A DNA stretch of 64,000 bases from Candidatus Poribacteria bacterium. GTDB taxonomy: Bacteria > Poribacteria > WGA-4E > WGA-3G. The translations under genes were made by a program, and so were the position numbers. This document shows, piece by piece, positions 2,544-15,635 of the stretch (position 1 is its first letter; each line of letters begins with the position of its first letter). The stretch lies in assembly GCA_965214095.1 (NCBI GenBank), contig OZ243938.1, positions 1,856,001 through 1,920,000 on the forward strand, read 5' to 3'. A model generated the notes under the pieces. The model saw nothing but the letters and a program-made list of their open reading frames with translations. It did not search any database and was not told where the DNA came from.

Positions 2544-2633
2544 TATAGTGAAATGTAAAAAACTGAACAAACACCGGTTCGGTTAGGAAACCGAACCTAC
2601 CGTAGTGTGTAAATAATTATGGTTTTTACTATA
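2544..2633. repeat. Short TATAGT...ACTATA-bounded element containing a GTAG-type REP hairpin (2575-2602)
   Basis: Terminal TATAGTGAAA / TTTTACTATA; internal GGTTCGGTTAGGAAACCGAACCTACCG recurs elsewhere in the window. Confidence 0.6.
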
Positions 2634-2655
2634 AATTCTCCTGTTACCGGTTGTT

Positions 2656-2955
2656 TTAGACGCTTTCTCCTTTATCTTTTTGTTTTTGTTGTGCAGCATC
2701 ACGTTTCTGTTTTTCATTATGTTCCATCTGACGGTTCCAACGTGCTACTGAGCGGAACATCTCCAAGAAACCAGCTGTAACCCCAATGGCAAATCCTATG
2801 ATTGAACCGATATAAGCGTTGCCTAATTTGCCACCTATCCATTTGCCACCAAAATAACCGATGACAATCGCAAGAGCAAGCGTTATACCGATTGAAGCAA
2901 GGTCAAACATCCCTACATTTTCATGTTTGAATTGGTCTAACCGTCGTTTAAACAT
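2656..2955 (-). CDS. AtpZ/AtpI-family (ATPase gene 1) two-TM protein
   Basis: LASIGITLALAIVIGYFGGKWIG...IGFAIGVTAGF pattern; first gene of the atp operon. Confidence 0.75.
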   Translation of the reverse strand: MFKRRLDQFKHENVGMFDLASIGITLALAIVIGYFGGKWIGGKLGNAYIGSIIGFAIGVTAGFLEMFRSVARWNRQMEHNEKQKRDAAQQKQKDKGESV

Positions 2956-3017
2956 GACGGGTACTCCCAGAATGAAAGTGATGTTAGAACTGATTTCCTC
3001 CTTAAGCAACGACATAA

Positions 3018-3046
3018 ATTATACTACAAGATTACAGTAAATGCAA
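3018..3046 (-). promoter_or_regulatory. Sigma70-type promoter of the atp operon
   Basis: TTGCAT-N17-TATAAT on the minus strand ~60 bp upstream of ATG 2955. Confidence 0.55.
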
Positions 3047-3400
3047 GAAATTTGCCATATATAGGATATGTAATTATTTTGTGAAATGATGTATTATCTT
3101 GAAGCGTGGAATTCATCTCAATCAATACTAAATGTACTTGCTTATGGTATTTGGAGGGCTTACAATTCCCTTGCCACAGAGGATAATAGTTTAGAGACAA
3201 ATTGCAAGTGGAACAGAAAAGTAATATAACGCAATAAGTAGTTTTGGGATTTTGCATTTTTTCAAGAATTTTGCAATTTGGTTTGTTTTTCAAAGACAAT
3301 AGTATAACTATATTAAAGCAATTTTCTTACCTATTTAGGTTCATCTTTATCACTACGTGGAATCCTAAAAATATCTCTAATTATATCTAGTGTTTTAGAG

Positions 3401-4845
3401 CAATACCTTCGCCAAAATTAGTTGAATAAAATGGGTTTTTGTCTTATAGTTTTACACTATATAACAAAAAAGGACAAAAACCCATGTCAGAAATTATAGC
3501 ACTTTTTTCAGTTCTTAATCTATCTATATCTAAAACAGCGATCCGTCAGTTATGTCAAGTTGTCCTTGCACTGCTTGCGATGACAGGACGGATCACCATG
3601 TTAAATATCTCTCGTTGGACTTCAAAAGGAGGTAGTTACCGCACTATTCAACGCTTTTTCAATACGGTGTTGCCTTGGTCGGCAATGTGCTGGACGTTTT
3701 TTCGCACACACTTGCTTGATCCTGATAGTGTTCATATCTTAGTAGGCGACGAAGTCGTTAGAAACAAAGATGGCAAATGCACCTATGGTTTATCGCGCTT
3801 TTTTTCTTCATTGCATGGGAAAAGCATTCCCGGTTTATCGTTTTTAGCCATATCCTTAGTCAGTGTTCCTCGGCGGCGTTCCTACCCGATGACTATTGAA
3901 CAAATCGTTCGGTGTGAAACAACTTCAAATCCTGGTGCTTCTCCGACTGAAAAGTCAGACAACACCCAGACAAAACAATCTATACGCGGGCGTCCAAAAG
4001 GGAACCGAAACAAAAATAAAAGGGATGTCGTCCTCAGTGATACTTTGAAACAACTTCAAACGATACTCAAAGAGGTGCTACACCTCATTGATAACTTGAT
4101 ACCCATCCGTTATTTTGTCCTGGATGGATATTTTGGGAATAATAACATTTTACAAATGGTCCATCAATGTGGTCTCCATCTTATTTCAAAACTGCGTGCC
4201 GATGCTGCATTGTATCTTCCCCCGACGACCTCTTACAAGCGCAGACGCCTCGCAATCTATGGAGAACGGATACATCCGCATAAGATTGATGAAAAGAACG
4301 CTGTTTGGACACAAACAGTGGACAACCTGAGAACCGATGTGTATCAAATGGAACTACGCCACAAAAAGTTCCCCGACCCATTGAATGTCGTTTGTATCAA
4401 AAAAACAAACCTATCCACGAAACAGCAGGCACACGTCTTATTGTTCAGTTCTGATTTAGCACTTGACGCAGAAAAAATGATAGACTATTATTCACTCCGT
4501 TTTCAAATCGAGTTCAACTTTCGTGATGCCAAACAACATTGGGGTCTGCAAGGTTTCATGAATGTCAACAAAACCCCTGTGAACAATGCGGCAAATCTGT
4601 CAATGTTTATGGTAAATGTCAGTGCAAAACTCATGGAAAAGGACAGATGTCAGAATCCCGAATATAGTGTATTAGATCTTAAATCGCACTACCGAGGTCT
4701 GAAATATGTGCAGGAAATATTAAAAGGACTTCCGCAGAAACCTGAACCTATTGTTATTCAGCAAATCATTGGCCGTCTGAGTTCAATAGGTGCTATTCAC
4801 AACACGCAAGCCAATCTTAATCCTGGATAATTGGCGAAGGTATTG
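3401..4845 (+). mobile_element. Insertion sequence, IS701/IS4-like DDE family
   Basis: Perfect 15-bp terminal IRs CAATACCTTCGCCAA (3401-3415) / TTGGCGAAGGTATTG (4831-4845) around a transposase; no target duplication visible. Confidence 0.85.
3484..4830 (+). CDS. DDE transposase
   Basis: VGDE, LDGYFG and YSLRFQIEFNFRDAKQ (YREK-like) motifs; ORF open from 3439, likely ATG 3484. Confidence 0.9.
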   Translation: MSEIIALFSVLNLSISKTAIRQLCQVVLALLAMTGRITMLNISRWTSKGGSYRTIQRFFNTVLPWSAMCWTFFRTHLLDPDSVHILVGDEVVRNKDGKCTYGLSRFFSSLHGKSIPGLSFLAISLVSVPRRRSYPMTIEQIVRCETTSNPGASPTEKSDNTQTKQSIRGRPKGNRNKNKRDVVLSDTLKQLQTILKEVLHLIDNLIPIRYFVLDGYFGNNNILQMVHQCGLHLISKLRADAALYLPPTTSYKRRRLAIYGERIHPHKIDEKNAVWTQTVDNLRTDVYQMELRHKKFPDPLNVVCIKKTNLSTKQQAHVLLFSSDLALDAEKMIDYYSLRFQIEFNFRDAKQHWGLQGFMNVNKTPVNNAANLSMFMVNVSAKLMEKDRCQNPEYSVLDLKSHYRGLKYVQEILKGLPQKPEPIVIQQIIGRLSSIGAIHNTQANLNPG

Positions 4846-5778
4846 GTATCCCTAACCCGTTTGAGATCTTTGTCTATTCGATTTCCATAGGTATGATGTG
4901 CCTCGTCAGAAAAAACACCTAAATTCGGTAGACTTACAATTTTCTCAAGTCGATGGTTCTCTTCTAATTCCGCCTGTTTTTCTTTCTGTTCTTTTTCATT
5001 TTTTCTCTTAAACTCCTGGAATAGATTATTTTTTTCTTCGTATTTTTTCGCAAAATGATTTTTTCAGTGTTCGTGATGATGATATTGAAGACGCTACCGC
5101 GTTGAACGGGCATATCTTTTGCCGCTACTGGTGCGAATTTTCGGTTTCCCATAAATTCCTGATATAGACTCGGTGGTAGAATCGTATCGTAAGGAACGTC
5201 ACTGATTTTGCGCAGACTTCCAATGATAGTTGTTCCGGGTGCAAAGACAAGTGCGTTTTTCATAAAATCGCTGTCAGGATAACGGAACGCCATTGCGAAT
5301 TCGGTTGCGATCATTGTTCCGATGAGTGTCGTCTTACCTGTGCCCATTGCAAGTGCGAAAATATAACTCGGATACTTCAACGACACAGCCTCATGAACCG
5401 GATTAATTCGCTTCTGCTTAACAAATGCTTGATCATTTTTTACACGTTCCAGAACCGATTCAATGTCTGGCACCCACTGTAACTCGCCAGCACTCATAGG
5501 AATACCCAACGCTTCGCAAAATACTGCGATATCACCACTGTAGTAATGCTTGTATAGTTCTACAATATGCGGTGTATTTCTCAGCAGTCGTAATACCAGT
5601 AGATTTCTAATGCGTAGAATTGTGGTTCTCGCAGATATTTGAGCTGCCCTTCCTCAGGTGAATTGCTATCAAACTGCCAATTCAGTATTTCTCCGATGAG
5701 TGGATATTCGGAACACGAGTATCCCGATTTACGCCATTTCTCTGTATCGTTCCGAAGTTTTTCATACAAGTGTTCCAT
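4846..5778 (-). pseudogene. Type III restriction-like Res subunit / DEAH helicase, frameshifted and truncated by the IS
   Basis: Fragments LREPQFYALE (5581-5778), ALAMGTGKT Walker A (4964-5509) and, in another frame, VFSDEAHHTYG just before the IS end. Confidence 0.8.
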
Positions 5779-5802
5779 ATAAGTCTATCTCCTTGTTTAT
5801 GA

Positions 5803-6984
5803 TCATATTTTTTGAATAAAGCCTTCTATCTGTTTACCTACTCGATCTATAACCCATGATTCATTTATAGGAATATTAAAAGCCCAGATTAGTTGATGAA
5901 TTAATTCTTCAACAATGTCTATCAATTTGTCAGAATTATTGAAATCACGTGGCATGCATTGCGTAGACGCATAAACTTCCATATCAGAACACACTGGACC
6001 ATCCGGTATATTTTCTGTGATTTTTTGTGCATATAATAACCTTTCATCAGGATCATAGAGTTGTATTCGTATGACATTCTGCAACCTTGCTGACACCTCA
6101 ATATTCCCTACATATTCACATTTCTCGTAGAGTCTTTTTGCCTGATATATTAGAACACTAATGGTACGAATAAAATCACAATAATTAACAGCTACACCAA
6201 TAAGTTCATGATGCACATTTGATTGCTGATGCTCAGGTAATACACTTCTATGATAGACAATACCATATTCATTTAATTCAAAAAATATGTTGTCATTTCT
6301 AACATTAGCGACTCCGCCTGCGACCTTTCTGGGTGGGTATGTCACACGCTCAAGTAACTCATAAATCTCCGATGTTGTAATCACAGGACGATACGGGTAT
6401 ACAGGCTGTGCAATGACCGTTAGACTCGGCTTTTTTTGTACACTGAAACGTTTTGCCCTTTCTTCAATACGATCCAATATTTGCTTCGCATTCTCCTGTG
6501 AATCCTCACGACGTTTGAACATATACGCAATTCTGTTCATATCTGCAAGGTCATAAGGTTCTGTAATGCTACCCGTGCGAATATAGGTTCTTTTTGAGTT
6601 TTGAATCGCATGCGGGGCTTGAATACTTTCATCGACACGAACTATGACGACTATGTTAGTAGAATTAGGAACATCAACGATTTTTATTTCTGGTATAACG
6701 GCAGGATAAATTCCCTCAAGTGAACTCTGCTGAATTCGCTCCTCAAATCCAGGTACGTTGGGTATACCCTTAATAGGAAAAATAACTTGGTTCTTTGTTT
6801 GTTCGGATTCAACTCCTATTAAAAATATTCCCCCGAAGGTATTTGCAAAAGCCGACACCATTTTTGGTATGTGTTTTTTTGCGTCTATTTGCCTTTTATA
6901 CTCAACCCGTACTCCTTCTGGTTGCTCTCTACAAAAAGTGTTGATATCTTCAAATGTGATTTCATCTAATGATTTTGTAAACAT
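5803..6984 (-). CDS. Schlafen/AlbA_2 domain protein
   Basis: EGVRVEYK, VSAFANTFGGIFLIGV and YIRTGS motifs. Confidence 0.85.
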   Translation of the reverse strand: MFTKSLDEITFEDINTFCREQPEGVRVEYKRQIDAKKHIPKMVSAFANTFGGIFLIGVESEQTKNQVIFPIKGIPNVPGFEERIQQSSLEGIYPAVIPEIKIVDVPNSTNIVVIVRVDESIQAPHAIQNSKRTYIRTGSITEPYDLADMNRIAYMFKRREDSQENAKQILDRIEERAKRFSVQKKPSLTVIAQPVYPYRPVITTSEIYELLERVTYPPRKVAGGVANVRNDNIFFELNEYGIVYHRSVLPEHQQSNVHHELIGVAVNYCDFIRTISVLIYQAKRLYEKCEYVGNIEVSARLQNVIRIQLYDPDERLLYAQKITENIPDGPVCSDMEVYASTQCMPRDFNNSDKLIDIVEELIHQLIWAFNIPINESWVIDRVGKQIEGFIQKI

Positions 6985-7019
6985 ACTATAACTTCCTCCA
7001 TCAAAAGCATATCAGACAC

Positions 7020-7409
7020 CTACGATTCATCAGGATTTTCCTGTGGTAGCATTTTATCCACACGACTGCGTATATCTGTTTCGCGCATCTGAATTTCTTT
7101 GTCGACTAACACCCCGTAGTCTACCCACCTTCGAATTAGACTTTCCAACGTTTCCATTGCCTCTTCAATTTTGGCAATTTCTGTTTCTTGTGATTTTTCT
7201 AAAGATTCTGATTTAAATGGTCTGAGTTCTTCAAATTTTGGTGAAAGATTTAAACCTAAACTTTCCACTAATTTCACGCTGTTAGTTAAATTCCTGACAT
7301 CGCCTTGCACTTGTCCTTTTATCCGATTCAGCACAGATTGGAATTCTTTTCGTGCCTCAATGTATTCGTTCCGCAAATCTACTCTATCATCGTTATTCAT
7401 TGTTTCCAT
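7020..7409 (-). CDS. Hypothetical alpha-helical/coiled-coil protein
   Basis: 129-aa charged helical ORF with GGAAGG near the start; co-oriented with neighbours. Confidence 0.6.
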   Translation of the reverse strand: METMNNDDRVDLRNEYIEARKEFQSVLNRIKGQVQGDVRNLTNSVKLVESLGLNLSPKFEELRPFKSESLEKSQETEIAKIEEAMETLESLIRRWVDYGVLVDKEIQMRETDIRSRVDKMLPQENPDES

Positions 7410-7826
7410 CCTTCCATTTTTTATTTATATGATAAACTCACCCACGCACAAACTATTTCCGCAGCAATTATTTTTCGGTCCAAAGACAAACTGTGCATAT
7501 TCACTATGTAACAAGTAAATTACTTGGCACTTTAGCACATCATTGCCACACGGATGGATAGGGTCGGTTTGCGAGGTATTCAACGCTAATCCTTGGCATG
7601 AGGTTATAATCAATCAACGGCTTTAGCAAGTTTGACTCCAATGTGTGCAGTGAACGGTTGCCGATTAGAAAATGAGATACCTTATTTGTCGCTTCCATAT
7701 AATGAGGGTATTTGTACTGCTTGTGACATGTTGGCTCTTTCTATCCTTTTTCAACGATAGTTTTGATATTTCCGTGTGAATTCTTTTCTAAACCGGCCAA
7801 GTTGACCAACGAGTTTATTTAACACT

Positions 7827-8792
7827 TCATTTTTGATACAGAAAAACCAAAACATTAGAACCAAGACCCCGTTTATGGGTTCCAGGTAAAATTATTGCTT
7901 CAACGTAGACTTCAATGTTTTGATTTGAAGAATTGATGGTAACAGGACCTTGATATGGAAACCGAGTTTCAGATACTTTGTAGATTGGAGATGATTCCTC
8001 AATTGATTTGTATTTAGGTATGTAAGTGGAGAAGTTTTTTGTTGGAAAAAAATACTGAACTCGTAACTTTTTCAGCGGTGGTTCCCAATGAAAATCATTA
8101 AACAACTTTAATTGATTCTTTTCTTGTTCAATTTTATCTATTTCTGTAGGTTTGTGACTGTAAGACAGGACCATCATAGCGCAAGACTCAAGACTTGTTG
8201 TAATCATACGAATAGATGTTGCTTCTATAGAGGTTTCATACCTTCTTGAAAGTTCTTGCAGAGATTTTAATGATACACCCATTCCTTTAACATCCAAATC
8301 AAATTCAGGTGTAGGCATGATAATTTCACTTGCTCCGAGATCACACAAAAACTCTACCTCATTTTGAGGATCGAATTGACCACTCCGGTGGCGTGCCTTG
8401 TACTGGTCTTGATAACCGGGGAATAAAGTATGAGCAATTTCATGAGCTATTGAAAAGTTTTGCCGTGCTTTAGGTTTCTTTGGGTTGTATCGGATTACCA
8501 TCCTCCCATTCTCTGCGGGGTGGAGTTCCGCGTCTTCACTATGTGTTAATTCATCAGATTTCTCACACGGGATTCCCAATATAGATGCAAGAACTTGTGG
8601 ATTGAAAGGCGGCCCATCCCATGATATACCCTTAGCTTCAGCAATATCCCTAGCTTCAGCAAGCTTTTCCTGGGCTAATTTCCGGATAATTTGTTCCGGA
8701 TCTTGAGAAATGTCTGAATAACATTCTATGAGTCGCACAACTGAATTATGAGAATAATACTTCTTACCAACTTTAATAATATTATGTTTCAT
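7827..8792 (-). CDS. ImmA/IrrE-family metallopeptidase (CapP-like)
   Basis: RQNFSIAHEIAH zincin motif and E.LCD.GASEIIMP; ATG 8792 overlaps the HTH stop (ATGA). Confidence 0.9.
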   Translation of the reverse strand: MKHNIIKVGKKYYSHNSVVRLIECYSDISQDPEQIIRKLAQEKLAEARDIAEAKGISWDGPPFNPQVLASILGIPCEKSDELTHSEDAELHPAENGRMVIRYNPKKPKARQNFSIAHEIAHTLFPGYQDQYKARHRSGQFDPQNEVEFLCDLGASEIIMPTPEFDLDVKGMGVSLKSLQELSRRYETSIEATSIRMITTSLESCAMMVLSYSHKPTEIDKIEQEKNQLKLFNDFHWEPPLKKLRVQYFFPTKNFSTYIPKYKSIEESSPIYKVSETRFPYQGPVTINSSNQNIEVYVEAIILPGTHKRGLGSNVLVFLYQK

Positions 8793-9193
8793 TGTCTCTT
8801 CATCACATATCGGATCGATGTCAGAATATGCTCCCAATCATCAACAGTCTTTGGTTGGTTACCTCTATACCGAATATTCATTAGCATTCGCACATCCTCC
8901 CTTTGAATATCAAGTTCTTTTCCTCGTGTATTAATAAATTTGCGTAATACATCCGGAATATCTTCATCTTCAAAGTCTTCCGCATAAACGCGCACAGGCT
9001 GGTCAAGGAGATCTGCAATAGTTATACCAAGTGCCGAAGCAATTTTAAGCAGTATCTCAGCTGAAGGTTGCTTACTCAGACTGTTTTCAAGCTGTGATAA
9101 ATAAGCTTTAGAGACATCAGCTTTTTCAGCCAACTGGTTTAGAGAAAATCCTTCTTTTTCCCGGAGTTTTTTGATCTTTTGACCTAGAAGCAT
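8789..9193 (-). CDS. XRE-family HTH regulator (CapH-like)
   Basis: LGQKIKKLREKEGFSLNQLAEKADVSKAYLSQLE HTH; C-terminal IRYRGNQPKTVDDW; paired with IrrE peptidase, divergent from the defence operon. Confidence 0.9.
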   Translation of the reverse strand: MLLGQKIKKLREKEGFSLNQLAEKADVSKAYLSQLENSLSKQPSAEILLKIASALGITIADLLDQPVRVYAEDFEDEDIPDVLRKFINTRGKELDIQREDVRMLMNIRYRGNQPKTVDDWEHILTSIRYVMKRQ

Positions 9194-9242
9194 GTGAATT
9201 TCCTTCTTATTTTATGTTTATCTTATTATTTTACACGAATTT

Positions 9243-9312
9243 GTTCGTTATTACAAACTTTTCTTGACAAATGGGTTTGTTATAGCGTATAATAGTATTC
9301 GTAAAATAGAAC
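9243..9312 (+). promoter_or_regulatory. Consensus sigma70 promoter overlapped by three imperfect palindromic operator-like boxes
   Basis: TTGACA (9264-9269) N18 TATAAT (9288-9293); boxes GTTCG-N6-CAAAC 9243-9258, GTTTG-N6-CGTAT 9275-9290, ATTCG-N6-AGAAC 9297-9312. Confidence 0.65.
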
Positions 9313-9341
9313 ACCTGTATGGTTATTGAGTGATGTAATAT

Positions 9342-10484
9342 ATGAAAACGAATTCCGAAAATGGAGGAAAAGTTTTGCACAAATTAACAATTTACCCGTT
9401 GGGAAACGCTGATTGTTGCTTAATTGATCTTGAAAATGGTCAAAAGATACTAATAGACTACGCCAACGTAGGTAATTCAGAGGACGATGATGATTTACGG
9501 ATTGATTTACCTAAAGCACTAGGTGAAGATCTTGAGGATACAGACAAGGATTTTTTTGATATAGTGGCATTTACACATGCAGACGAAGATCACATTAAGG
9601 GGTTTTCTGAGTTCTTCTATCTGGAACACGCACAAAAGTATCAGAGCGATGATAGGTTTAAAATCAATACACTTTGGGTCCCCGCAGCAATCATTCTTGA
9701 AAAATCACCTTCCACAGATGACCATAAAATTTTACGGGCAGAAGCACGGCACCGACTGAAAGAGGGATCTGGAATTCGTGTCTTTTCTAAACCTGAAGCT
9801 TTAGAGGAATGGCTGGAAGAGCAAGATTTGAGGTTAGAAGATCGAGAGGAACTAATCACGCACGCTGGAGTAACCGTCCCTGGATACAAAAAGTCATCAG
9901 AGGGTGTTGAATTTTTCGTACACGCGCCTTTTTCTGATAGCATTGAGGATGATGTAATTGAGAGGAACGATGCAGCACTTGTAGTTCAAGCCACTTTTCA
10001 ATGTGAAAATGTTGAAACTCAATTGATTCTAGGGTCAGATATTACTCATGAAGTCTGGAATGATATTGTCCGAGTAACGCAACATTACAATCGAGATGAC
10101 CGGTTGAAATGGGACATATTTAAAATCTCACATCATAGTAGTTACACAGCACTGAGCGATACAAAAGGGACAACGAAAACTACCCCTGTGGAAAAAGTTA
10201 AATGGCTATTTGAACAAGGGCACGATAAGGCAATATTAGTTTCAACGAGCGATCCGATTCCATCGGAAGATACAACTCAACCACCACATCGGCAAGCATC
10301 AAACTATTATAAAGACGTTGTTAAGAAAATTGACGGTGAATTTAAGGTGACAATGGAACACCCGAAAAAATCCGAACCTAAACCACTTGCCATTACTATT
10401 GACAGTTCAAAAGCAACAATAGTGAAACGAAGTACAGGCGGTACTAATAATATTACTAAGCAACGTTCTCCAAGATTTGGATAA
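9342..10484 (+). CDS. Metallo-beta-lactamase-fold hydrolase (ComEC/Rec2-like) with flexible tail ending RFG
   Basis: GNADC, LIDY, THADEDHIKG, GSD and KISHHSS motifs; probable TTG start at 9375 after GGAGG. Confidence 0.85.
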   Translation: MKTNSENGGKVLHKLTIYPLGNADCCLIDLENGQKILIDYANVGNSEDDDDLRIDLPKALGEDLEDTDKDFFDIVAFTHADEDHIKGFSEFFYLEHAQKYQSDDRFKINTLWVPAAIILEKSPSTDDHKILRAEARHRLKEGSGIRVFSKPEALEEWLEEQDLRLEDREELITHAGVTVPGYKKSSEGVEFFVHAPFSDSIEDDVIERNDAALVVQATFQCENVETQLILGSDITHEVWNDIVRVTQHYNRDDRLKWDIFKISHHSSYTALSDTKGTTKTTPVEKVKWLFEQGHDKAILVSTSDPIPSEDTTQPPHRQASNYYKDVVKKIDGEFKVTMEHPKKSEPKPLAITIDSSKATIVKRSTGGTNNITKQRSPRFG

Positions 10485-12729
10485 TATTTCTATGAAACAA
10501 GAATTCTGTAAAATTGATGGCGAAGTTGTTTCTATTGATGATGTTAATATATCAAAAGCAAAGGACTTCGCCAATTCAGTCATATCTTCGACTTTCGCAC
10601 ATTTTATTGAGTGTAGACGAACAAATGCTAATAATGAGATCATCGTTTTCAACGCTGAAGTCGAAATTGGTCAAAAGACCGTATACGACATAAAACCTCT
10701 TGAAAGAATCGCGGTTGAGTTTGATGTATCTGATAACTTCATGCCAGAAGTGTTAGCACTCCGTAAGAACTTTCCCTCCGTGCCACATATTAATCTACGA
10801 TCTAGAGAATTTCCAAGAAGTTTGTGCGTAACAGAACTTCCATACAGTGAGTTAAAACTGCAATGGACTGGAATAACTTTTGTTGAAGACATTAGAAGAT
10901 GGTTGGCAGAAGCAGCCAAAGATACTCTTCATGCTGAAGACCAACCCTTAGAGCCACTACTTGGGACGGCAAAAGATATTATCGTTCTTCCATACGATTT
11001 GTTCACAAGAGGCAGCATTTCTGAGCCACTGATTATTCCCATAGAAAATAAAATAAACGGACGCAGTATATATATTGCAGAACGTCACGTTGATATAGAC
11101 CAGAATCCATTAAAATATGTTGCAACTGGCTTCCTAAGCGACTGCTTAACCCATGGCATTATTAGTAAGGAACCAGCGAATCTGTACGAATTACACCAGT
11201 TTTTAGAATGTGGTAATCTCGATCTATTAAAGGAGATACAACAGCGTTTACACAAGTGGAGAAATGACATAAGAGCAGACGATATCTTATCTGCAAAGCT
11301 AATCCTGATTGTAGAACTACCGAAATCAAGGTACAGAAATACCTCACAGGAAACCACCGAGTACAAAGCTTTTTTAATTCAGAAATCGATAGAGGAAATT
11401 GGTTGCGAACTTGGTTTGTGGACAGCACATGATGGTTATGCTGTCCCGATTCTCGGTATCAATCAGCTTGAGAAAGGTGATACCATTTCAGTAGACATGC
11501 TTAATCCTGTCTTCTCACTTTCAAGTGAATTTGCTGCTCAACTTAATGGTTTTTCTTCAAGATCTAATACAAAAATAACTGCAGTTGGTTTAGGTGCTCT
11601 TGGTTCACAGGTTTTTATGAACATGGTTCGAGCTGGTCAAGGTCAGTGGACATTGGTTGACAAAGACATCTTGCTTCCGCACAATCTCTCTCGTCATGCC
11701 CTTGACGGTTTTTCTATTGGTTTCCCTAAAGTTCACGGTCTCGCTGTAAAAGCGAATAAAACAGTAGACGGGAATCCAATTGCTGACTGGATAGCTGCTG
11801 ATGTAATAAATCCTTCAGAATCTCAAGAAAACCTGCAAAAAATGAATGGAGCATTTAGCACGGCTGAAATTATCTTAGATGCTTCGGCTTCGGTACAAGT
11901 TGCACGATATTTAGTTTATAATGTTGATTCATCAGCTCGACGAATATCGATATTTCTGAACCCGCAAGGAGCAGATGTCACCTTATTAGCGGAAGATATA
12001 CAACGGAGCGCCACACTTGACTCTATAGAGATGCAATACTACCGACACCTTATAAATAATGACTATTTGGCAGATCATCTAAAGAGGAATGGTGAACGTA
12101 TTCGTTATGCGACTTCATGTCGTGATGTTAGCTATACTATTCCACAAGATTTTGTAGCACTGCAAGCCGCAATATGTAGTCGCGCAGTCCATCAATTAAC
12201 GTCTAATGATCAGGCGTTTCTGTCAATATGGCGAACTGACGAAGAACAATTCAGCGTGAAAAAATACTCATTCACTGTGAAAAAAACTATTAATTCTCAA
12301 AAAGGTGAATGGACATTATGTACCGATGAGGGATTCATCAAAAAAGTTCACGATGAACGTGAAAAGAAACTTCCAAACGAAACAGGAGGTGTGTTGGTTG
12401 GATCGTATGATATGCAGCGGAAAATCGTCTATGTTGTCGATTGTCTACCTTCTCCCTCAGATAGCGAAGAATGGCCAACTCACTATATTCGCGGCTGTCA
12501 AGGGTTACGTTCGCGAATAGAAGAAATACAGCAGATCACAGAAAACCAATTAAGATATGTTGGTGAATGGCATTCTCATCCACCGGACTGTAGTGTTAAA
12601 CCAAGCCAAGATGATCGAAAAGGCTTCAAGTGGATATCACATTATATGAAGCAGGATGGTTTACCACCTTTGTTGCTCATTGTAGGTGATACCGAAAAAT
12701 ATGCATTTTACCTAGAAGAAATTGGTTAA
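10477..12729 (+). CDS. Prokaryotic E2 - E1 (ThiF) - JAB fusion (Cap2/Cap3-like)
   Basis: E2 PHIN...SLC; E1 GLGALGS, DKDILLPHNLSRH, DASAS, candidate catalytic TSC; JAB ETGGVLVG and GEWHSHP..PSQDD. Confidence 0.9.
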   Translation: MDNISMKQEFCKIDGEVVSIDDVNISKAKDFANSVISSTFAHFIECRRTNANNEIIVFNAEVEIGQKTVYDIKPLERIAVEFDVSDNFMPEVLALRKNFPSVPHINLRSREFPRSLCVTELPYSELKLQWTGITFVEDIRRWLAEAAKDTLHAEDQPLEPLLGTAKDIIVLPYDLFTRGSISEPLIIPIENKINGRSIYIAERHVDIDQNPLKYVATGFLSDCLTHGIISKEPANLYELHQFLECGNLDLLKEIQQRLHKWRNDIRADDILSAKLILIVELPKSRYRNTSQETTEYKAFLIQKSIEEIGCELGLWTAHDGYAVPILGINQLEKGDTISVDMLNPVFSLSSEFAAQLNGFSSRSNTKITAVGLGALGSQVFMNMVRAGQGQWTLVDKDILLPHNLSRHALDGFSIGFPKVHGLAVKANKTVDGNPIADWIAADVINPSESQENLQKMNGAFSTAEIILDASASVQVARYLVYNVDSSARRISIFLNPQGADVTLLAEDIQRSATLDSIEMQYYRHLINNDYLADHLKRNGERIRYATSCRDVSYTIPQDFVALQAAICSRAVHQLTSNDQAFLSIWRTDEEQFSVKKYSFTVKKTINSQKGEWTLCTDEGFIKKVHDEREKKLPNETGGVLVGSYDMQRKIVYVVDCLPSPSDSEEWPTHYIRGCQGLRSRIEEIQQITENQLRYVGEWHSHPPDCSVKPSQDDRKGFKWISHYMKQDGLPPLLLIVGDTEKYAFYLEEIG

Positions 12730-13903
12730 CATTAAAATGGAATGTAAAACGTCAGAAAATGATTTGAAAATAGGAATAGCCTTATCAGGTGGAGGCGTTA
12801 GAGCTTCTGTTTTTCACTTGGGGGTTCTTGGTAGACTTGCAGAGGACAAACTCTTGGAGAATATTACGCGCATTTCAACTGTATCTGGAGGAACACTTGT
12901 AACAGGGATGATTTTCTCAATCACAGGATACAAATGGCCGACCAGTGAGTTTTTTCTTCAGCAATGTCTTATCCAGGCGCGCGACTATTTTACTAAAAAA
13001 GATATTCAAACCAAGGCATTCGTTTGGGGTATTCGCAAACCGCTCTCTCTTATTCAAAAAAGAGCGAATTTAATTTCCAAAAGCATTCAAGATTGTTGGA
13101 ATATCTCAGGAAACCTTAATGACCTCCCGCTCCAACCCCGATGGACTATAAACGCCACTACGTATGAATCAGGCAAAAACTGGCGTTTTATCCCGCAGCG
13201 TAGGATGGGTGATTATATCATAAATCATGTCAAAAACCCAAATATTCTTTTAGCCGATGCAATGGCTGCCTCAGCGGCTTATCCGGGATTAATTGGTCCA
13301 CTTACCTTAGATACGCGAAAATACAGCTGGTATGAGTATGAAGGTAAAACGCAAATTCAAACTCAACCGAAATTCAAGAAACTTCACCTTTGGGATGGAG
13401 GGCTCTACGAAAATTTAGGAGTAGAACCTCTCTTCAAAATTGGAGAAAAACACAAATATCACGATGATTGTAATTTTTTGGTTGTAAGTGATGCTTCTAA
13501 TCCTATCGGCAGCAAAAGGCATACTGGGATGTTTTGGAAAAGTGCAATTCGACTTATTGACATTTCAATGGACCAAGTTAGAAGTCTAAGAACCCGCTCT
13601 CTGATAAATCACTTTGAAAATAATGTAAATTCGGGCGTTTACTTCAAAATAGGGAATACTGGGCGTAAAATATTAGAAGCAGTGGAAACAAACGTTAATA
13701 TAATTGATAAGTTAACAGAAAATAGTTTGTCACCAAGAGATGCACATTTGGCAGAAAATTTTGAAACTACCCTAAGGAAACTATCAGTAGACGAATATGA
13801 CTTACTATATCAACATGGTTGGGAGGTTGCAAACTTCACACTTCAGGCACGATGCCCAAATCTTTTCCAAAACATGTTTTGGAAACCCAACTTCTTAGTT
13901 TGA
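12722..13903 (+). CDS. Patatin-like phospholipase
   Basis: LSGGGVRA oxyanion loop, STVSGG nucleophile elbow, ASAAYP, LWDGG; start overlaps upstream gene by 8 bp. Confidence 0.9.
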   Translation: MVNIKMECKTSENDLKIGIALSGGGVRASVFHLGVLGRLAEDKLLENITRISTVSGGTLVTGMIFSITGYKWPTSEFFLQQCLIQARDYFTKKDIQTKAFVWGIRKPLSLIQKRANLISKSIQDCWNISGNLNDLPLQPRWTINATTYESGKNWRFIPQRRMGDYIINHVKNPNILLADAMAASAAYPGLIGPLTLDTRKYSWYEYEGKTQIQTQPKFKKLHLWDGGLYENLGVEPLFKIGEKHKYHDDCNFLVVSDASNPIGSKRHTGMFWKSAIRLIDISMDQVRSLRTRSLINHFENNVNSGVYFKIGNTGRKILEAVETNVNIIDKLTENSLSPRDAHLAENFETTLRKLSVDEYDLLYQHGWEVANFTLQARCPNLFQNMFWKPNFLV

Positions 13904-14204
13904 CCTTCAGTTTCACCGCCATTCCAGCCCACCCATCAGACAAACGAAACATCGGTATTTCCACGAAATTATGCAGGACAACTTGATTTGGAAGCACAAA
14001 CCTACCAGCAGAGTAAACAATCGTATCGGAACAGATTTAACAATGTTTTACCGAGTATGGTAAAGTTTAGAATTAAAGGGTATTGGTTAAATAATGATGC
14101 GGTAATTAGTGGGTACCCTCTGAACCGCTCTGCATCACATTTCAATGAGAGTAGAGTTAATGATAACATTTATGACAAAAATCGTCAATCAAACTGATAA
14201 ACTG

Positions 14205-14355
14205 GGGCGTGTAGAGTTTTTGGTATGAATATCACAGTAACCATTGTATTGCGGGTCTCCGTGCCCCGCAATTGATGGGAGGAAAGATGGCGGGGCACGG
14301 AGACCTCGCAATACAATGGATGGTCCGAAGTTAGAGCCAAGAACTTTACACACTC
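14205..14355. mobile_element. IS256-like MITE copy 1 with internal hairpin
   Basis: 21-bp imperfect IRs (GGGCGTGTAGAGTT.../...AACTTTACACACTC); 8-bp flanking repeat ATAAACTG/ACAAACTG. Confidence 0.7.
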
Positions 14356-14632
14356 ACAAACTGATTTTGTTTGACAGATGTAGCTAAAACCTACCCTTAT
14401 TGAAAACAAACTCGCTGCTCTATAGAGGACAACATGAAGAATAGCCCAAGATGTCAACACACTCACTCTGTCAGAAACGGGTTCGTCAAAACGAAACAAC
14501 GCTATAAATGCAAAAACTACTGTTATCAATAGACGCGCACAACACCACGGGGAAACCACAAGCACAGAAAACTCTTACCGTTCTCTTAAATTGCCACGGC
14601 ATCTCAATGAATGCTATCTCAAAATTTATCGG

Positions 14633-14745
14633 AATTAGTCGTTTTGGGATTAAGCATACTTATGAAAAGGCTTTAGAGACTTTTCATAAGTATGTAGCAT
14701 AAATATAGGTTTATAGTAATTTTTCAAATCCCAAAACGACTAATT
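14633..14745. mobile_element. Small MITE with perfect 19-bp IRs
   Basis: AATTAGTCGTTTTGGGATT / AATCCCAAAACGACTAATT; internal 15-bp hairpin CATACTTATGAAAAG/CTTTTCATAAGTATG. Confidence 0.7.
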
Positions 14746-15139
14746 GCGAAACTTATTAGATGCAACGTAACAACTTTGCTTCAATGGATACGCACATTTG
14801 CTAAAAAACAGACACCGAAACAAACACTCACACCCGGCACCACCGTCTGCTTGAAACTTGATGAGATGTGGCACAATATTGGGAACAAGAAAAACAAACT
14901 CTGAATATGGAAGGCACTTGACAGAAACATAGGATACCTCATTGAATGGAAATGTGGTGGTCGTGATAGACAAACCCTTGAAAAACTCACAGCAAGGATC
15001 TCACCCCTCAATGCTAAGATATATTACACAGACAAATGGCAGGTCTATGCGTTGGTTCTACCTGCTGCAAGACATGTTCAGGATAAAGCGGAGACGCATC
15101 GCATTGAACGCGACAATGGTCAAATGCGCCACTAGTTCG

Positions 15140-15326
15140 GGGTGTGTAAAGTTATTGGCATTAACTTCGGACCATCCATTGTCTTGCCAAATCAACGGTA
15201 TGAATGCGCTTATGGCATTCCCCGGGTCTCCGTACCCCGGTATCTTCAATCTACCAACAAGGGCGGGGCACGGAGACCCCGTAAGACAATGACTGATGAG
15301 ATGTGTGCCAAAAACTTTACACACTC
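15140..15326. mobile_element. IS256-like MITE copy 2 (inverted relative to copy 1), interrupting insB
   Basis: IRs GGGTGTGTAAAGTTATTGGCA / TGCCAAAAACTTTACACACTC; perfect 9-bp duplication ACTAGTTCG. Confidence 0.8.
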
Positions 15327-15635
15327 ACTAGTTCGGACGCTTCAAGCTCAAGTCCATTATTGTTTCCAAAAGCATAGAAATGGTGAATTTGACGATTGCT
15401 TGGTCCACACGATTGCATGTCAATGGCAACGTGTTTGACATTTTAAAACTCGGCGGAGTAGAAAACATGAATATCATTATTTAAACAATACCTTCTAGGA
15501 TTAATTAGACACTCTGCATCAAGCGAGGTTAAGAAACCGCCAAATCAACGGTATGAATGCTATTTAGCATTCTCTGTCTCCGTAGCGATGAAAGTATCTA
15601 TTTATTTTGAGTATTATATTACTATAAGCTTTATC

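Follow-up and report, generated by a model that had tools for sequence, protein, structure and literature searches.

A 6A-MBL operon with a patatin-like phospholipase as third gene, divergent from a CapH/CapP-type switch, in a Candidatus Poribacteria genome

The window analyzed here is a stretch of 64,000 nt from a Candidatus Poribacteria bacterium (assembly GCA_965214095.1, contig OZ243938.1, positions 1,856,001 to 1,920,000 of the forward strand), and its subject is a group of five intact open reading frames (ORFs), present within positions 7827–13903 in the window ORF listing, that resembles a bacterial defense operon. Three of them follow each other on the plus strand with an 8-nt overlap at both junctions: a metallo-hydrolase of the metallo-beta-lactamase (MBL) fold (9342–10484), a triple-module E2-E1-JAB protein of 750 aa that represents a Cap2-Cap3 fusion (cap2_3, 10477–12729), and a patatin-like phospholipase of 393 aa as an accessory third gene (12722–13903). 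On the minus strand, and divergent from this trio, lie the overlapping genes of a CapH-like XRE-family helix-turn-helix (HTH) repressor of 134 aa (8789–9193) and of a CapP-like IrrE/M78 zinc peptidase (7827–8837). Our favored explanation, with chances we put at not quite even, takes the operon for a 6A-MBL system of three genes under a CapH/CapP-type switch, with the MBL working upstream of the patatin. A preliminary description, made from the sequence alone, had already proposed five genes at these positions, a 6A-MBL core with intact catalytic motifs, a CapH/CapP-like divergent pair, and the lack of a nucleotide cyclase, and all of these points held up in the searches and alignments given below.

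The core was identified from both of its proteins. The MBL matched the NCBIfam equivalog 6A-MBL_enzyme (NF058524) with 403.9 bits (cut-off 220) over profile positions 2–345 of 346, and cap2_3 matched 6A-MBL_cap2_3 (NF058523) with 632.3 bits (cut-off 320). The MBL had no Pfam match, while three Pfam domains were found in cap2_3 (Prok-E2_A at residues 53–178, ThiF at 363–478, and Prok-JAB at 621–737), together with PADLOC matches to E1-E2 (92.6 bits) and JAB (89.2 bits) and a weak match to the NCBIfam model of Cap3. Among solved structures, sequence searches gave weak matches of cap2_3 to Cap2 (7to3) and MoeB and no informative match to the MBL or patatin. In the alignments of relatives (32 sequences each), the MBL residues H79, D83, H84, D233, H264, H265, and the terminal G380 were invariant, as were C117 of the E2 domain, the GxGxxG motif at 371–376 (G371/G373/G376) and C548 of the E1 domain, and E635, H699, H701, S710, and D713 of the JAB domain. 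The two genes are adjacent (overlap at 10477–10484), and the same order was found in 25/25 of the MBL-seeded loci with a tblastn homologue of cap2_3. Based on these profile matches, the core can be assigned to the 6A-MBL system with high confidence. The most probable start of the MBL is the TTG at 9375, located 7 nt after a GGAGG (9363–9367), as it fits relatives that begin with MHKLTF. As a separate observation, cap2_3 of locus L020 (8151–11581) is split into ORFs of 186 and 566 aa by approximately 1.2 kb carrying two minus-strand ORFs, probably an insertion into the gene, and a patatin gene lies downstream of the split copy (12140–14029).

The C-terminus of the MBL ends in ...SPRFG, and those of the family read ...PR(A/F/Y/M)G, with a short extension beyond the glycine in 4/24 printed ORFs from genome loci, 4/14 printed metagenome ORFs, and a copy on an E. 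coli plasmid. In the AlphaFold2 (AF2) model (mean predicted local distance difference test score, pLDDT, of 89.6), residues 364–380 fall below 50 and form a disordered tail. Cap2 substrates are known to have such a C-terminal glycine tail. By analogy, G380 may be adenylated by the E1 domain.

The patatin was recognized at the level of the general family only (Pfam Patatin, 59.4 bits), with no match among the PADLOC or NCBIfam models (0 PADLOC families). Its motifs and fold fit a predicted phospholipase: G24-G25-x-R27, S55 (in TVSGG), and D225-G-G were invariant among 33 aligned sequences, and the nearest folds to its AF2 model (pLDDT 89.7) were those of PlpD, AbCapV, CapE, and potato patatin, with a template modeling (TM) score of 0.5 to AbCapV, so that only the fold is in common. 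No promoter- or terminator-like site was found by a simple scan between cap2_3 and the patatin start.

The divergent pair was identified by Pfam and PADLOC: Peptidase_M78 (53.3 bits) and capP (86 bits, E 6.7e−25) for the peptidase, which carries the HEIAH motif, and HTH_3 (59.4 bits) and capH (54.1 bits, E 6.3e−15) for the repressor. For CapP, a start at the ATG at 8792 appears more likely from the sequence, giving a protein of 321 aa, as in the orthologue of genome G079; in this case, start and CapH stop codon would overlap as ATGA. The pair shares a 148-bp intergenic region with the operon, and the control region proper (9226–9311, given for the plus strand) contains a sigma-70-like promoter with a 12/12 match (TTGACA at 9264, an 18-nt spacer, and TATAAT ending at 9293) that is flanked and overlapped by three imperfect inverted repeats (I1–I3), which we infer to be putative CapH operators. 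Promoter-like sites across the region showed no excess (22 vs. 23.7 in shuffled sequences). The pair resembles the DNA-damage switch described for CapH/CapP (Lau et al. 2022 preprint; Calloji et al. 2026 preprint) in having the same HTH repressor and M78/IrrE peptidase, divergent from their cargo and with a shared promoter region. It differs in the cargo, which in the window is a 6A-MBL pair with a patatin, and cleavage and single-stranded DNA sensing would apply here by analogy.

This control cassette recurs in front of a different defense operon in the same hotspot of sister genome G079 (locus L146, G079:C46, 1097–5642), where a segment 87% identical in nucleotides to window positions 7824–9314 drives a cyclic oligonucleotide-based antiphage signaling system (CBASS) of type I-like composition, with a 315-aa patatin, a SMODS cyclase (CD-NTase, the cGAS/DncV-like nucleotidyltransferase of CBASS), and a SEC-C-motif protein. 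CapP is 85% identical to its orthologue flanking this CBASS, and CapH is 79% identical to the G079 and 87% identical to the G089 orthologue. The promoter and the inverted repeats are conserved between the two loci, and the similarity stops approximately 28 nt before the ATG of the MBL or the first cargo gene. Stimulation of CapH cleavage by CapP through single-stranded DNA, followed by derepression, would be expected from the family as well as from this cassette upstream of a CBASS. At a single hotspot, one conserved CapH/CapP promoter cassette is followed by either a CBASS or a 6A-MBL operon, a clear case of exchanged cargo under a DNA-damage switch that stays the same. On the far side of CapP, G079 has genes for an N6/N4 methylase and a ResIII helicase.

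The absence of a cyclase was checked at two levels: no match to SMODS or DncV was obtained in the five genes of the operon and the five flanking ORFs scanned alongside, and SMODS (PF18144) was not found in the genome itself, which is 94.47% complete. Compared with type II CBASS carrying a patatin (CD-NTase, Cap2, Cap3, and CapV), the window operon also encodes homologues of E2-E1 and JAB, a presumed substrate enzyme that ends in a tail, and an effector of the patatin fold; the optional CapH/CapP or WYL regulators and the exchange of effectors between close relatives are further points in common. It differs in that both operon and genome lack a CD-NTase and an MBL-fold hydrolase is present instead, in that Cap2 and Cap3 are fused, and in that the patatin has no match to the hidden Markov models (HMMs) of CBASS phospholipases.

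In order to establish what follows cap2_3 in relatives, MBL-seeded loci were collected with one genome per species (27 loci; the nearest, with 75–81% identity, are in Candidatus Poribacteria metagenome-assembled genomes), of which 23 extend at least 1.3 kb beyond cap2_3 and are informative for the third gene. Eight of these have a patatin of the window family directly after cap2_3 (identified by tblastn in L011, L013, L017, L020, L021, L025, and L027, and by clustering in L026), 14 have a predicted membrane protein there, and in one (L008) a second MBL stands between cap2_3 and such a membrane protein. The membrane proteins are small and are predicted to have 2–4 hydrophobic segments of membrane length. 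Two types among them match PADLOC models, namely a Csx27-like protein and PDC-M48A, the latter together with a second MBL, PDC-M48B (189.9 and 545.3 bits). Since 22/23 loci have either a patatin or a predicted membrane protein in third position, and the remaining one has such a membrane protein behind a second MBL, the membrane is suggested as the output.

The PDC-M48 pair (a protein with three transmembrane segments, 3-TM, and a second MBL) immediately follows cap2_3 in the Poribacteria cores nearest to that of the window (L001, 10350–11951; L002, 10468–12060; L004, 10357–12006) and also in L022 (10813–12475), L116, L118, and L119. This PADLOC candidate system is like the window operon in combining a ComEC-like, defense-type MBL-fold protein with a membrane-directed partner, but it is absent from the window, where the patatin takes its place, and the M48B-type MBLs lack the glycine tail. 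The exchange is also visible in an MBL tree of 31 rows, from which L003, L005, L009, and L012 (no downstream information) and L008, L011, L013, L020, L021, L024, and L025 (mis-sized MBL ORFs) were omitted. The window MBL groups in a clade (SH-aLRT, an approximate likelihood ratio test, 99) with three Poribacteria loci that carry the PDC-M48-type pair of membrane protein and second MBL, and the patatin label requires at least seven changes on the tree, at least four of them forced by well-supported branches; the metagenome rows are patatin-seeded, which makes the spread of the label meaningful and its frequency not.

The reverse search, seeded with the patatin in metagenomes, bears on whether the patatin is a chance neighbor in a defense island, that is, a separate stand-alone gene or system beside a two-gene 6A-MBL. 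Among the best 80 loci, 35 are informative on both sides, and a 6A core was found in 21 of them. The linkage grows with the similarity of the patatin, as the core is present in 10/11 informative loci at ≥ 40% identity, 10/18 at 35–40%, and 1/6 below 35%. The adjacency also survives changes of order and orientation, with the patatin located upstream of the MBL in L046, L047, L048, and L051 and convergent in L027 and L041. Moreover, the start of the patatin overlaps the stop of cap2_3 by 4–14 nt in L025, L043, L049, L053, L054, L058, and L063, and by 4 nt in Bradyrhizobium and Phaeobacter plasmids, so that start/stop overlaps occur in many lineages; together with the absence of a promoter- or terminator-like site noted above, these features speak against chance. 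What favors it are the 14/35 informative loci in which the patatin relative has no 6A core, other solitary patatin relatives beside RlmL, sulfatase, or EPSP (5-enolpyruvylshikimate-3-phosphate) synthase genes, and a solitary copy (58% identity) next to an EPSP synthase gene in genome G143, whose 6A core is on another contig. In addition, PDC-M48A/B is a PADLOC candidate system by itself, implying that adjacent modules can be autonomous, and the island in the window is a mosaic that includes an insertion sequence (IS). Overall, we consider a chance association improbable. Given the translational coupling, the recurrence in both search directions, and the linkage kept through rearrangement, the patatin very probably works as part of the operon, and its status as an integrated member is a conclusion that we hold with good confidence. 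The preliminary description, which had placed the patatin in the operon, is thus borne out by the recurrence of the gene beside homologous loci in the genome (8/23) and metagenome surveys alike.

Not all loci lacking the core are devoid of related genes: a defense-type MBL-fold gene is present in the flank of 15 of the 59 metagenome loci without a 6A core among the best 80 (two of them near-identical), and 5/5 of those flank MBLs that were scanned match the LmuA, Avs1a, or PDC-M48B models. An apparent fusion of cap2_3 and patatin in L036 (a 1167-aa ORF, 3676–7179) was rejected, as the JAB part lies in another frame and the joint is an Arg/Pro-rich read-through; the cause is a frameshift or faulty assembly of this high-GC contig.

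Relatives of cap2_3 are also present in 288 plasmid records, 133 of them conjugative. The plasmid of Phaeobacter sp. G2 (CP104102.1) has the architecture of the window, with ImmA/IrrE and HTH genes divergent from DUF2188, MBL, 'ThiF', and patatin genes, a Bradyrhizobium plasmid carries WYL, MBL, cap2_3, and patatin genes in this order, and a patatin lies beside the core on plasmids of Gluconobacter oxydans 621H, Magnetospirillum, Sphaerotilus, and Agrobacterium; 5/5 of the best plasmid matches to the patatin adjoin a 6A core. A second MBL and a 3-TM protein are found on Polaromonas pPNAP01. The conjugative E. coli plasmid pKMi029_1 (L149, NZ_CP147110.1, 2183–7112) has WYL, MBL, and cap2_3 genes with no effector gene after cap2_3, a 172-aa protein with two transmembrane segments beside the WYL gene, and an MBL that ends in PRAG followed by four residues; other enterobacterial plasmid matches are alike as listed (29% identity over residues 45–740).

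This occurrence on mobile DNA raises the alternative that the module is not primarily anti-phage and serves instead in DNA-damage-induced stress, addiction, or inter-element competition, for example, by host killing or lipid remodeling when the element is disturbed. In agreement with it, the E. coli plasmid locus adjoins umuD and an SOS-response peptidase gene, no relatives of the MBL were found in 50,697 phage records, and CapH/CapP-type switches also control prophages and integrative and conjugative elements, according to the accessible part of the Lau 2022 preprint. On the other hand, 6A-MBL is listed among jumbo-phage defenses and experimentally confirmed, as reported in papers citing van den Berg 2024 (in the portions available), NCBIfam names both core proteins 'anti-phage', and the regulators, effectors, and hotspot are common to CBASS. 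A primary role other than phage defense is therefore regarded as very improbable.

Further evidence on the position of the MBL came from its own family. A profile search of 1.84 billion representatives gave 337 MBL-family clusters at E ≤ 1e−30, and among the ten longer members scanned, five had a C-terminal AGS_C domain (P0014, P0019, P0047, P0060, and P0120) and one had a SEC-C motif. The three AGS_C fusions with inspected sequence all lack the glycine tail (...PRAG). The AGS_C of P0019 is 48–54% identical to that in 423–436-aa ORFs of four Bacteroidota genomes; all three of those ORFs that were scanned are SMODS-AGS_C proteins, and SLATT effectors lie beside two of them. Contigs carrying such fusions were sought among plasmid records, where 0/402 matching records cover ≥ 80% of P0019, and in five genomes, 401 genomes of the G176 phylum, and 401 of the G495 order, which gave matches to the MBL or to AGS_C only. 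The accessible text of a preprint (bioRxiv 10.1101/2023.05.21.541620) places AGS-C on approximately 40% of type I CBASS CD-NTases and on Pycsar cyclases and describes it as absent in other CBASS types, and, in the part seen of a Corbett-lab preprint (PMC11601596), 'Type II CBASS/Pycsar/MBL' stand together as pathways in which 'their respective signaling enzymes' are conjugated. Some 6A-type MBLs thus have AGS_C at the same end as type I CBASS and Pycsar cyclases, unlike the window MBL, which has the tail. The SEC-C member, P0058 (660 aa), carries the motif in a C-terminal extension that, by eye, also includes a stretch resembling a prokaryotic E2 active site.

As the AGS_C fusions seen are without the tail, the two appear to exclude each other, as in CBASS. 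WYL or CapH/CapP regulators stand upstream of 6A-MBL cores, also as in CBASS. The MBL family therefore resembles signal synthases in its two alternative C-terminal regulators, in having CapH/CapP or WYL upstream, and in its exchangeable membrane-directed neighbors. The idea of the preliminary description that the MBL occupies the position of the cyclase finds comparative support in this architecture (the glycine tail, the AGS-C fusions, the swappable effector neighbors, and a CBASS under an orthologous CapH/CapP), and in nothing beyond architecture.

On this basis, the following sequence of events can be proposed. CapH would repress the strong promoter at 9264–9293, and CapP, once activated by single-stranded DNA, would cleave CapH and thereby induce the operon, as expected from the family and the CBASS cassette of the sister genome. 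By the chemistry of type II CBASS Cap2/Cap3, the E1 domain would adenylate the terminal glycine of the MBL, which would be transferred via Cys548 of E1 and Cys117 of E2 to a target, with the JAB domain trimming or reversing the conjugation. In the place of a CD-NTase, the MBL would then switch on the patatin through a product or through its conjugated state, a step already raised in the preliminary description and suggested by architecture only, and the patatin would degrade membrane phospholipid, leading to the abortion of the infection. The reading that we adopt by analogy, with chances somewhat below even, puts the MBL ahead of the patatin, as a regulated enzyme in the cyclase position with the patatin as membrane-lytic output.

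Several observations weigh against such a relay, in addition to the solitary patatin genes and the E. coli plasmid described above. Every mechanistic step is drawn by analogy. The patatin has no recognizable ligand-sensing domain, and both its HMM searches and a BLASTP comparison with the CBASS patatin of G079 (E 0.028) show it not to be CapV-like; the G079 protein itself reaches 342 bits with the CBASS phospholipase model of the same PADLOC library. CapH/CapP was detected by tblastn in 2/24 informative genome loci only, and so does not count among the constant components of the system. The solved fold nearest to the MBL model is the MBL domain of ComEC (9ic4, E 1.4e−12), followed by the phosphocholine esterase Pce, and its nearest defense HMMs in PADLOC are LmuA, Avs1a, and RTasMBL, the MBL proteins of Lamassu, Avs1, and the reverse transcriptase system DRT. 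Proteins of these three kinds are usually read as effectors, and MBL-fold enzymes are hydrolases. Given the hydrolase chemistry, the ComEC-like fold, and the effector-type HMM neighbors, the MBL may itself be the killer. A predicted complex of the MBL and the patatin (score 0.01, against a mark of 0.32) was counted neither for nor against binding.

These properties of the MBL lead to the main rival of the relay, in which the operon encodes two parallel effectors: the MBL would be a killing ComEC-like nuclease or phosphodiesterase primed by Cap2_3 conjugation, and the patatin a second, independently triggered effector that is co-transcribed only. This would agree with the fold and HMM matches just given, with the absence of a gene after cap2_3 on the inspected E. 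coli plasmid, with the naming of the system by NCBIfam after the MBL and cap2_3 only, with the 'usually two genes' of the original operon survey (Iyer, Burroughs & Aravind 2006), and with the different third genes among closely related cores. It accommodates less easily the membrane-directed gene found directly after cap2_3 in all 23 informative environmental loci, and the AGS_C fusions and the Cap2/3-type tail, which place the MBL in the slot of signal-making enzymes. Furthermore, a patatin without a regulator is generally expected to be toxic. Taken together, we regard two parallel effectors as somewhat unlikely.

Returning to the relay with the MBL upstream of the patatin, its broadest version would make the 6A-type MBL a new upstream enzyme in a CBASS-like relay without a nucleotide cyclase, regulated by either a Cap2/Cap3-type tail or a fused AGS-C, whose hydrolytic product or conjugated state switches on exchangeable membrane-attacking effectors. 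This generalization is speculative and, in our estimate, unlikely. If it is true, the window operon offers a compact natural example for finding the signal; should the MBL prove to be just a nuclease effector, what remains is an ordinary subtype to which another effector has been added. Since both known kinds of C-terminal regulation of CBASS/Pycsar synthases occur in the MBL family, whether an MBL hydrolase generates or relays a signal becomes a direct bench question.

With respect to novelty, the preliminary description had presented the five-gene architecture as a possibly undescribed anti-phage variant, and this stands in part. 6A-MBL corresponds to operon type '6a' (Table 1, row 6a) of Iyer, Burroughs & Aravind (2006), where Gluconobacter oxydans is included in the '6a' species list, and the accessible part of the Lau 2022 preprint shows a '6a' system of Methylobacterium oxalidis composed of CapP, CapH, a hypothetical protein, a metallohydrolase, E2-E1-JAB, and a second hypothetical protein, with no patatin named there. 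As '6a' and its combination with CapH/CapP were thus reported, neither the core nor the switch is new. Compared with the known 6A-MBL system, the window operon has the same adjacent and overlapping MBL-fold and E2-E1-JAB genes, with conserved catalytic residues and C-terminal glycine, and adds a translationally coupled patatin and the divergent CapH/CapP. The literature searched yielded no account of a patatin beside 6A-MBL, of the recurrent patatin or membrane-protein gene behind cap2_3, or of the 6A-MBL mechanism; supplementary tables, such as Table S1 of Lau 2022, may list such operons. The five-gene layout is present in CP104102.1 and in genome G089, and the three-gene layout on the G. oxydans 621H plasmid, which indicates a widespread subtype without a name and not a one-off, and the claim of novelty was to this extent overstated. 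In summary of the records, the core, the switch, and their association are known, and the three- and five-gene layouts exist in public records without a description found in the literature. The more interesting product is the general pattern, with a patatin or a membrane protein after cap2_3 and AGS_C or a tail on the MBL.

Within the phylum, 6 of 176 genomes contain a cap2_3 above cut-off, and 4 contain the patatin. All five genes recur in G089, where they are divided between the ends of two contigs, and G105, G108, and G143 have the MBL and cap2_3 followed by PDC-M48. In the nearest genomes (G091 and G093, 94–96% nucleotide identity), the atp block and a block of glycan-related genes lie 441–444 bp apart, and in the window the same blocks are separated by 13.1 kb. 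By this comparison, the operon is part of a strain-specific island of approximately 13.1 kb (2545–15628, no strand assigned). No tRNA gene that could serve as an integration site was found in positions 1–30000.

Besides the operon, the island contains a multi-copy IS (3401–4846) with a DDE_5 transposase ORF (3439–4830), copies of which are 73–98% identical across the genomes of the genus. Between the IS and CapP lie a minus-strand gene for a Schlafen/AlbA_2-domain protein (5803–6984, 64.8 bits, no PADLOC model) and two small minus-strand ORFs without a confident family, one at 4964–5509 with a marginal PADLOC match to Cas5 (17.9 bits) and one at 7020–7409 with no PADLOC model; the three may represent another gene set of a defense island. 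Downstream of the patatin, a repeat-rich non-coding stretch (approximately 13904–15635) carries paired repeats at approximately 14200–15330, including 46-nt arms that are 91% complementary (14308–14353 and 15142–15187) and copies of the type GGCGGGGCACGGAGACC, and the spurious ORFs in these repeats share the peptide LALTSDHPL. The repeats look like elements of the repetitive extragenic palindromic (REP) or miniature inverted-repeat transposable element (MITE) type.

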